Shown here piece by piece: positions 50,201 to 52,186 of a DNA stretch of 64,000 nucleotides. The position numbers and the translations under genes are program-made. Positions within the stretch are counted from its first letter, which is position 1; the number at the start of each line of letters is the position of its first letter. The notes under the pieces were generated by a model. The model saw only the letters and a list, made by a program, of their open reading frames with translations. It had not been told where the DNA came from and made no database searches. Source of the stretch: Flaccisagitta enflata (lineage: Eukaryota); the NCBI GenBank assembly GCA_965153355.1, contig OZ231126.1, forward strand, positions 10,292,001-10,356,000, read 5' to 3'.

Positions 50201-52186
50201 TTTTTGCGTTCAATTCTTGGAGGGGGGTGCTACGGGGGAAATGCTAAAATTTTTAAAAGAAACCTGAGAAATGAAACTAACTACAATCCCAAACGTGCAC
50301 AGAGTTACCTCTTGTCCTTAGATTTCTGCGCGCTGTATTCGTATAGTTTGTCGGGCCATCTGTATGACGGGAATTTTCGATTCCTTTCCCATTCTGAGTT
50401 GGAACATCTTGAAAAAGACATAAAGGAAAATCGCGTTCACGAGTCATGGTCCGATGAGTGCGCGACTCAGCGTGTGTGCACGCGAACTGGAAAAATGTTA
50501 AAAATAGGTTATTTACTTGAAGTTTCTTTATATCTAAATCCGTGCTATCATAATTCAATGCAGGGTTTACCATTAATTTTAACAAAAACTGCTATAAATC
50601 CAAGTTGGACATCTTCCTTTCAACAACAGCTTAAATCTAGACTCGATGGTAAACGCCCGGGACGGACGGACGGGCAGACGGGGTTAAACCCGGTCCAGAG
50701 ATTTGACATGGACCACACAATTGATTGCTTAGACAGGACATCAGGGGTCGCGTCGTCGGACAGTTCTAAACAGCGTTTGGTCCCAGTTTTGTCAAATGTC
50801 AAGTCTTACATGATAGATTTTCGGATGCTTAACCTTTTTCTGTCATTAGGCTTTGAACTTGTCTCAATTTCGGCTTGTCTAGAAACATCTTTGTCCCCCT
50901 TTATTCGCCCATATATAGAGGAACGGGCTAAACAACGTCGCTTATCAAAAAATCAGACTGAGTCCAATCGCCAAAAGTTTATGTGCAATGCCGTATACAA
51001 AAAACTACTAGCAAACTCAATGAATTACACAAAATCAGTTATTGTGACTAATGCTCATCAGTTTGCACGAGAGGCGGGTAAAAATTCCTTTCGCGAGTTT
51101 CATGATCTAGATAATTCGTCAGGTTTGATTATCCATTCGCGACCTATATTTAAGCCAAAAAATTTGATCTATGCCGGTTCATGCGTACTTTTTTTGAGTA
51201 AATATCATTTACTTAAATACTATTATACATTACTTGTTCCAATTTTCAAAATTAACGCGCTTTTGGTCACTTTTGCGTACTCGGACACTAACAGCTATTT
51301 TCTAGACATTAAATCGTGCACAGATCCACTTGCACCATGTGACGAAAATGGAATTCACTCAAGCTTCCCTAGTTTTTTACATTCGGCGGACACAATAGAT
51401 AAAAAAAAAGAGAAAGAACGTGAAATGGGGAAGAAAAACTGGGGTCGAGGCAAGGGCACCAGTGTTGGTTTGACAGACGAACAAGTACGACAAGACCCAA
51501 CCCTGTTTAAAAGACGGGTTTTAGATTCCTTGAGACTTTTGTATACTCATATGGATCTCAGTAATGTATCATCAAGGCAGGCAGAAATATTCAATTACGG
51601 AACATCTCAATTAGAAGGAGACTGGTTATATCAAAACAGGAATGCCAATAAACGCGTCCCAGGCAAATTAAGCTTTGTTGACGATCCGTCCACAATCACA
51701 CACACACTGTTTTGCTTCATAAAATCAAAGTGTTACGTGGTGAAAGGAAAGGTAGAAACCGTGACGGCAGACGGACAAGTAAAACACGACGACTTGGTCT
51801 TAAAGAAGATGAAAGGAGTGAGTTCAAGAAGTAAAAGTGCAATTTCGGCTGATCTGTTCATAGAATTTGCCTTAGGGAAAACTAAATATGATCGACTTTA
51901 TGTGAGACACGAGTATTTCTATAAGAAAAATTCACGTATTTACTTAAAGAGTCACATGAAATCGGCCTCTAATTGTTATGATGCCAAGCGTTTTTTTATC
52001 AAAAACTATAACGGTGACTGTGATCAATGGGGACTACCATTCGGCCATTTTCTGCTACCAACTGTTAGAGAAGTACAAAGTATTCTTGATAACATGGTAA
52101 CATTTATTTGCAACGAAGAAGAAATGGCCCAAAAAAAAAATTCCGTTGTTAGAATTCATGAGATGCTCGATCCGAGCCATAATTAA
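46811..52186 (+). CDS. pPolB: Protein-primed family B DNA polymerase (1791 aa) with N-terminal TP/vOTU-like region and endonuclease VII-like insert; motifs B and C altered
   Basis: ExoI FDSES, ExoII QNFFAWD, ExoIII YLFGDT. Motif A LDFCALY, B KFMCNAVYKK, C YSDTNSY, then KSKCY, KKMKGV, DAKR, LPFGH. EndoVII-like CDRC..RHHSH..CSRCN. AATAAA at 52372. Confidence 0.95.

Follow-up and report, generated by a model that had tools for sequence, protein, structure and literature searches.

A predicted full-length protein-primed DNA polymerase with two replaced active-site residues in the genome of Flaccisagitta enflata

The genome of Flaccisagitta enflata (Eukaryota) carries an uninterrupted gene for a predicted family B DNA polymerase of the protein-primed kind (pPolB) in which two active-site residues, invariant in all aligned relatives, have been replaced. 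The gene lies in a stretch of 64,000 nucleotides (the window; NCBI GenBank assembly GCA_965153355.1, contig OZ231126.1, positions 10,292,001 to 10,356,000 of the forward strand), where an open reading frame (ORF) at 46811-52186 (+) comprises 1791 codons in a single continuous frame with no internal stop. The 1791-aa product, designated P0001, is by sequence and model a replication protein from an integrated DNA virus, Polinton/Maverick- or adintovirus-like, whose host is a marine eukaryote and probably an animal; it is predicted to consist of a terminal protein, a vOTU-like region, a 3'-5' exonuclease, and a polymerase. Both substitutions recur in a second, diverged, and decayed copy of the gene. 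On balance we lean towards an active-site variant that became fixed in this lineage and has been kept by selection, and that is probably weak or dead as a polymerase.

Replacement of two active-site residues

The consensus of motif B in these polymerases is Kx3NSxYG and that of motif C is YxDTDS with both Asp residues; P0001 departs from both. In motif B (50975-51004, +; K1389-x3-N1393-x2-Y1396-K1397-K1398) the Gly is replaced by Lys, encoded by AAA at codon 1397 (50999-51001), and in motif C (51278-51295, +; Y1490-S-D1492-T-N1494-S1495) the second Asp is replaced by Asn, encoded by AAC at codon 1494 (51290-51292). One of the three active-site Asp residues and the motif B Gly are therefore replaced, within a range (50975-51295) bounded precisely by K1389, the Lys of motif B, and S1495, the Ser of motif C. 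All 43 homologues of a MAFFT alignment (A1) and all 79 homologues of a second alignment (A2) have Gly at column 1397 and Asp at column 1494. The remaining hallmark residues are retained in P0001, including K1389, N1393, and Y1396 of motif B, Y1490, D1492, T1493, and S1495 of motif C, and K1640 and Y1642 of the KxY motif. The YKK of motif B is better read as a substitution than as a one-residue deletion, because the K, L, and N that follow stay in register, by eye, with the consensus 'YGKxLxN'. Among 175 collected proteins, DTNS occurs only in P0001 and in three members of the cluster that represents the second copy.

In the AlphaFold2 model of P0001 (see below) motif C occupies the turn between the two strands of a beta hairpin (935-943 and 946-953), in a block with a predicted local distance difference test (pLDDT) score of 91-95, and motif B falls within a helix (833-850). 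The catalytic carboxylates of phi29 DNA polymerase are given as Asp249 and Asp458 in the available text of PMC4974454. From the shared YxDTDS motif and the overall match in fold, N1494 would be the counterpart of phi29 Asp458.

These replacements do not appear within a generally eroded protein. Of the columns that are conserved in at least 85% of A1 (80 in all), P0001 departs from the family residue at 12, compared with 13, 12, and 10 departures in the canonical relatives P0005, P0013, and P0012, respectively, and its root-to-tip distance is 2.45 against 2.53 for its sister P0005. Because the departures at conserved columns and the branch length match those of canonical relatives, and because the vOTU, HNH, and exonuclease residues are kept, there is no indication of general decay; P0001 is, as judged from the alignments, an ordinary representative of a divergent clade, marked by two highly specific changes. 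The initial annotation of this DNA had described an intact 1791-aa pPolB with Asn at 51290-51292 in place of the invariant metal-binding Asp, with Lys at 50999-51001 in place of the motif B Gly, and with motif A, the exonuclease motifs, and the frame undamaged. The ORF, codons, alignments, and fold searches agree with that description, D1171/Y1176, D568/E570, D778, and Y1070/D1074 all being present with no stop.

A second copy with the same substitutions

Searches with phmmer returned, besides distant homologues, several near-identical fragments (P0002, P0003, P0004, and P0038; 88-98% identity). P0003 and two further members of its cluster, P0152 and P0153, originate from ENA assemblies (four contigs in all) and cover aa 1391-1655, with one or two residues setting each apart from the others. 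They are variants of a second, diverged, and decayed copy of the polymerase gene, and all three carry K1397 and N1494.

The nucleotide sequence of this second copy was recovered by comparing Logan contigs from three runs (X1, X2, and X3) with positions 47300-52400 of the window. Run X1 contains contigs identical to the window (for example records 1 and 4, in which no letter differs and the depth is 80-87), and 33 of its 60 contigs match the window at 99% or more. The same run contains a second form at a similar depth of 85-87, which differs from the window at 27 of 288 letters in record 2 and at 30 of 352 in record 3. Run X2, from another sample with the same organism label as X1, yielded the second form only, with none of its eight contigs at 95% identity or above, while the marine-metagenome run X3 contains a mixture of forms at a depth of 2-4. 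The decayed copy is thus found in both X1 and X2, with nearly equal differences from the window. The presence of window-type sequence in X1 and not in X2 may reflect an insertion polymorphism, with the proviso that absence from contigs is no proof of absence.

Over 47300-52400 the second form has at least 12 insertions and deletions, among them deletions of 2, 2, 4 or 5, 1, 15, 23, 13, and 2 bases and a 16-base insertion, together with a stop at codon 231. Its frame breaks coincide with the starts and ends of P0002, P0003, and P0004. The window copy has no stop, frameshift, insertion, or deletion in 1791 codons. As an intact copy and a diverged, decayed one share both substitutions, these are neither an assembly error nor a lesion private to one copy, and by parsimony both would date back to an ancestor shared by at least two diverged copies.

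Run X1 also contains a contig that joins position 48649 to 50660, with 24 other letters between them, at a depth of 78, and several of its contigs leave the ORF internally, with loose ends at 48631, 50597, 50678, and 51436. The organism sampled in X1 therefore holds further rearranged or internally deleted copies of the gene.

Affiliation with the protein-primed family B polymerases

P0001 is a divergent member of the Polinton/adintovirus-type pPolB family, an assignment that draws on intermediate sequences and on a structural model. Direct searches were uninformative. P0001 matches no Pfam family, even at E<=0.1, and has no gathering-score match of its own to PF03175; PHROGs likewise gave no match. 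A sequence search of the PDB with P0001 returned low-complexity matches only, and a PDB search with the A2 profile found the Endonuclease VII insert and zinc fingers only, with no match to phi29 polymerase. A word-index protein search found nothing near full length and, among shorter proteins, only the P0003 cluster. No relative was found by peptide patterns among JGI metagenome contigs or in IMG/VR. A search with a 20-base motif C pattern produced four loci (L001-L004), which share only 23 bases with the window and are surrounded by stops; these were set aside as chance matches.

A phmmer search with aa 560-1759 against 1.84 billion representatives retrieved 1778 proteins at E<=1e-3, of which 445 reached E<=1e-10. 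When 14 of the best long matches were scanned against Pfam, PF03175 (DNA_pol_B_2) was found in six and Endonuclease_7 in five, and five had no Pfam family, namely the four closest long relatives of P0001 (P0005, P0008, P0012, and P0013) and P0018. The homology of P0001 to PF03175 is thus established through phmmer intermediates. Features of P0001 in the ESM Atlas scored 0.92-0.93, with 22 of 30 matches falling in DNA_pol_B_2 clusters. In a FastTree tree P0001 groups with P0005, P0013, P0012, and P0008, which are proteins of 1600-1900 aa from ENA marine assemblies, all with the canonical Gly and Asp. The nearest full-length relative, P0005 (1701 aa), is 27% identical and aligns from approximately aa 122 to the C-terminus. 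The contigs that encode these four relatives, and those of the cluster members, are 5-7 kb long, each barely exceeding its ORF.

An AlphaFold2 model of aa 550-1749, built from an 80-sequence alignment, has a mean pLDDT of 77.7 and a predicted template modelling score (pTM) of 0.82. With this model as the query, Foldseek places phi29 DNA polymerase at all of ranks 1-9 against the PDB (best E 5.6e-11). VIA-align superposes model residues 12-1172 on residues 5-575 of the phi29 chain with Z 17.2, a root-mean-square deviation of 3.5 A, 535 of 566 residues aligned, and 13% identity, compared with Z values of approximately 10 for other B-family polymerases; the match to the phi29-type fold, of which the TPR1 and TPR2 insertions are a part, is counted over the whole chain. 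The best viral model in the fold search is the PolB of Drosophila-associated adintovirus 3 (E 5.5e-41), followed by MELD virus, bidnavirus-like, and adenovirus polymerases.

Selection between the copies

There are 280 differences between the window and other copies, of which the 40 listed all fall at 47392-48396; the residues at codons 1397 and 1494 were confirmed indirectly, through three protein variants from other assemblies. These 40 differences are distributed over codon positions 1, 2, and 3 as 11, 4, and 25 (binomial p 1.5e-4 against one third), and comprise 23 synonymous and 17 nonsynonymous changes, giving a rough ratio of nonsynonymous to synonymous rates (dN/dS) of about 0.16 with Nei-Gojobori site counts. 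For aa 835-1262, records 12 and 13 of X2 have 72 nucleotide differences and P0002 has 17 amino-acid differences, which corresponds to a rough dN/dS of about 0.07-0.11 if P0002 and the X2 contigs represent the same copy. In the last third, record 14 has 59 differences over 50595-52239 (about 1576 bases), with 16 amino-acid differences in aa 1391-1631 (241 codons, 6.6%) and six in aa 1644-1777. The excess of differences at third codon positions and the rough dN/dS values of 0.07-0.16 indicate that the N-terminal and middle parts have been under purifying selection. At Y1472, the single conserved column at which the copies differ, the window copy keeps the family residue, and this, together with its lack of insertions and deletions, fits constraint along the window copy's own line of descent.

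Explanations for the altered active site

The interpretation favoured here supposes that two substitutions in the active site of the polymerase became fixed in the lineage (Asn for the second Asp of motif C and Lys for the Gly of motif B), that both changes preceded the split of at least two copies, and that the gene then went on evolving under purifying selection, with the ORF complete in the window copy. Two-metal-ion DNA synthesis by P0001 would be abolished or strongly reduced. The frame would be retained for the sake of other parts of the protein, such as supply of the terminal-protein primer, vOTU processing, the exonuclease, or binding of DNA ends, and copying of the genome would depend on residual activity or on a polymerase provided in trans by another copy of the element or by the host. 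The initial annotation had offered two explanations, a lineage that keeps a pseudo-polymerase and relies on another replicase, and deamination-type mutation of this one copy, and had proposed that the other copies be compared at both codons and that dN/dS be estimated. The same Lys and Asn in all three second-copy variants mean that the changes are not private to one copy, the rough dN/dS of 0.07-0.16 applies outside the motif B-C segment, and the former explanation, in so far as the lineage keeps an altered polymerase, fits both the shared changes and the third-position excess.

Several points weigh against this interpretation. The known copies fall into only two lineages. Estimates of selection are rough, as the position-by-position counts come from 40 of 280 differences in the N-terminal third and the middle estimate assumes that proteins and contigs represent the same copy. 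Depending on how the 59 differences of record 14 are apportioned, the C-terminal third, in which both altered motifs lie, ranges from constrained to neutral, and its nucleotide divergence, the lowest in the gene, would also fit a more recent shared origin by recombination between copies. Purifying selection across the polymerase domain would be explained at least as well by a working enzyme. The equivalence of N1494 and Asp458 is drawn without a residue-level structural alignment, and the A2 profile has no sequence match to phi29. Finally, neither a helper nor a second polymerase was found in the window by Pfam scan, tblastn, or blastn, the element extending past the end of the window. The case for a selected variant is nonetheless real, although it comes from two copy lineages and partial difference tables.

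A rather unlikely alternative, and the one that survives best, is that the polymerase is still active with a remodelled active site, in which the Asn carbonyl would ligate the metal, perhaps with a preference for Mn2+, and the new Lys beside the motif B Tyr would alter handling of the dNTP (deoxynucleoside triphosphate) or template or partly offset the lost charge. The intact frame and the purifying selection across the polymerase domain are in keeping with this, as are the retention of all other catalytic residues (including D1171, D1492, K1389, N1393, Y1396, and the KxY motif) and an overall conservation no worse than that of canonical relatives. One negative charge has been lost and one positive charge gained in the same site, which might be functionally coupled. 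Against this, neither change is tolerated in any of the 79 relatives, and other polymerases are slowed by orders of magnitude when a metal-ligand Asp is replaced by Asn. The equivalent Asp of phi29 is, moreover, one of the two catalytic carboxylates according to the available portion of PMC4974454.

More doubtful is the possibility that the lineage is dying. The changes would then have arisen, or been carried between copies by recombination or gene conversion, not long before the known copies separated; the polymerase would be dead and free of selection, and the window copy would owe its intact frame only to its youth. The C-terminal third, with both motifs, is indeed the least diverged part of the gene in nucleotides (59 differences in 50595-52239 against 45 in 863 and 53 in 493 bases elsewhere), but its amino-acid divergence of 6.6% is as high as elsewhere. 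That the other copy is a pseudogene also favours this explanation, and the window type occurring in X1 and not in X2 fits a young polymorphic insertion, subject to the caveat on contig absence given above. It is countered by the third-position excess and low dN/dS of the N-terminal and middle thirds, and by a window copy free of stops and frameshifts across 1791 codons when the other copy has at least 12 insertions and deletions.

Deamination-type (APOBEC-like) G-to-A editing of this copy, the other explanation of the initial annotation, is very improbable. With GAC and GGA assumed as the ancestral codons, each of the three implied changes would be G-to-A in the coding strand, and two of the three would lie in a TC context on the other strand, but the changes are common to all three variants of the diverged copy. 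The substitution spectrum, which that annotation had proposed to check for a G-to-A bias, is balanced: from the window to the other form, X1 shows 34 A>G, 31 G>A, 51 C>T, and 57 T>C changes (173 transitions and 68 transversions), and X2 shows 34, 28, 59, and 55, respectively, with no asymmetry between G>A and A>G or between C>T and T>C in either run. The composition of the ORF carries no signature of editing either, since G is not depleted (GC skew +0.056, AT skew +0.068), GA and GG dinucleotides are present at 1.07 and 1.12 times expectation (TC 1.00, CC 1.15), and 17 TGG codons are intact. This rejection applies to the present copy and not to a light editing event in a distant common ancestor, the nearest outgroup being only 27% identical. 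An assembly or sequencing error at the two codons has a negligible probability, as the same residues recur in three proteins that differ slightly and come from independent assemblies, and X1 contigs are identical to the window elsewhere in the ORF (no other letters in records 1 and 4).

Domain organization of the polymerase protein

The other parts of P0001, all encoded on the + strand, are largely conventional. The N-terminal extension (aa 1-549; 46811-48457) would comprise a putative terminal protein and a vOTU-like region, in an architecture and nomenclature taken from the available text of PMC11161782, and it keeps Cys335 (47813-47815) and His477 (48239-48241), which occupy conserved columns. 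Exo I (D568-x-E570; 48512-48520) is intact, with D and E in 79 of 79 homologues and in P0001. A predicted Endonuclease VII/HNH-like zinc insert (48851-49081) follows, in which the aligned residues C681, C684, H706, H708, C756, and N757 are kept; the profile of alignment A2 matches T4 endonuclease VII (1e7d) in this insert at E 1.2e-5. In the alignment the Exo II Asp, D778 (49142-49144), is intact, the conserved His that precedes it being Gln in P0001 (Q772), as is Exo III (Y1070-x3-D1074; 50018-50032). The exonuclease motif columns (Exo I, II, and III) are invariant in 78-79 of 79 homologues and all are present in P0001. Motif A (D1171...Y1176; 50321-50338), on which 79 of 79 homologues agree, and the KxY motif (51728-51736), as aligned, are both intact. 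The observed/expected ratio of CpG in the ORF is 1.01, with no sign of CpG depletion in the element.

The element and its surroundings

The element that contains the pPolB gene runs off the window at 64000. Inverted-repeat lists contain microsatellite pairs only and no terminal inverted repeat, and one end of the element is probably outside the window, which is rich in microsatellites and low-complexity ORFs. None of the 73 other ORFs of at least 110 aa in the window exceeded the Pfam cut-off, and no integrase family, such as the RVE integrase that goes with pPolB in Polintons, was found, in a scan by which divergent or spliced genes would be missed. In one RNA run, of which about 6% was read, a single partly fitting read was found near 52100-52400, which has no bearing on expression.

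A candidate penton/minor-capsid-like ORF of 299 aa lies at 63047-63949 (-). In the ESM Atlas it matches, at 0.98, clusters of Preplasmiviricota, Arthropoda, and Nematoda as well as a minor-capsid cluster of Sputnik V18/19; it has a 93-95% identical relative of 295 aa from ENA (P0176), and a two-sequence AlphaFold model is too poor to use (pLDDT 28). Of the virion module of Polintons (double jelly-roll capsid protein, penton, packaging ATPase, and Ulp1/adenain-like protease), this penton-like ORF is the one lead in the window. As this ORF is penton-like, it provides a lead that the polymerase may belong to a capsid-encoding Polinton-like element extending from 46.8 kb to beyond 64 kb. A bolder proposition, which can be entertained only tentatively, is that a capsid-encoding Polinton-like lineage propagates with a replication protein lacking the universal metal-binding Asp, either through a remodelled Asn-plus-Lys site with altered metal use or chemistry or as a 'primer-donor' pseudo-polymerase. 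In the latter version the terminal-protein, vOTU, and exonuclease parts would be used while the polymerase of a helper element copied the genome, a satellite-like dependency that, if true, was not found described for Polintons in the literature searched.

Directly upstream of the polymerase ORF is a 603-codon open frame at 44981-46792 (+) with polyglutamine runs and C2H2-like zinc fingers, which is in frame with the polymerase ORF and separated from it by a single TAG (46790-46792). A tblastn match places residues 23-97 of P0013, a pPolB of the long clade, at 46124-46357 (E 4e-7, with 32% identity across 78 aa), and in P0016 C2H2 fingers are fused to the N-terminus of the pPolB. The upstream frame could be a gene of the element, part of a broken fusion, or an instance of generic zinc-finger likeness. 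Two further ORFs on the - strand have no Pfam match. The product of 62286-63089 is extremely basic and rich in Arg, Gly, and Lys, and is possibly a DNA-condensing core protein, while that of 58815-59435 contains 'GSHW', which we take to recall the His motif of adenain/Ulp1-like maturation proteases.

Comparison with known polymerases

Among characterized families P0001 is closest in organization to the Polinton/adintovirus pPolBs (TP-vOTU-Exo-Pol, where TP is the terminal protein; PF03175). Its homologues carry PF03175 and the Endonuclease VII-like insert, and its long N-terminal extension has conserved Cys and His columns like those described in the available text of PMC11161782. It differs in having no Pfam match of its own, in its place within a divergent marine clade of very long proteins, and in the Lys and Asn at positions where 0 of 79 relatives have them. 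With five members scanned and assigned to no Pfam family, P0001 also serves to mark this clade of 1600-1900-aa marine pPolBs. The phi29 DNA polymerase (PDB 2PZS, 2PYJ, 2EX3, and 1XHX) shares its fold over nearly the whole chain and the same set of motifs, whereas P0001, at roughly three times the length, has large insertions, a TP-vOTU part at its N-terminus, and Asn at the motif position of the catalytic Asp458, the equivalence being by motif.

A non-exhaustive literature search that excluded supplements yielded no report of a Polinton-type pPolB that is full-length, keeps its exonuclease intact, and is altered at these two residues alone; nothing useful was found on Asp-to-Asn in motif C, and for 'DTNS' with 'polymerase' none of the matches listed concerns a polymerase motif. 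If P0001 is a selected pPolB without both residues, it would be a clean natural example of an early-stage pseudo-polymerase, relevant to the sharing of replication functions among Polinton-like viruses, or else an experiment of nature on how far a protein-primed polymerase can dispense with its two-metal site.

Inactivated family B domains are known from several sources. The available part of PMC5499653 lists the C-terminal half of Pol epsilon, an archaeal family, poxvirus F12, herpesvirus UL8, and the pDNAP domain of Tlr1-like helicases of polinton-like viruses, and reports structural or non-catalytic roles proposed for such domains; palm domains of the Tlr1 type are now predicted to be active in the corresponding part of PMC11161782. 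Like the inactivated domains, P0001 keeps the B-family fold while catalytic residues are replaced. In those domains, as far as they are described in that part of PMC5499653, whole motifs have been lost, whereas in P0001 only two residues have changed and the exonuclease and the other motifs are intact.

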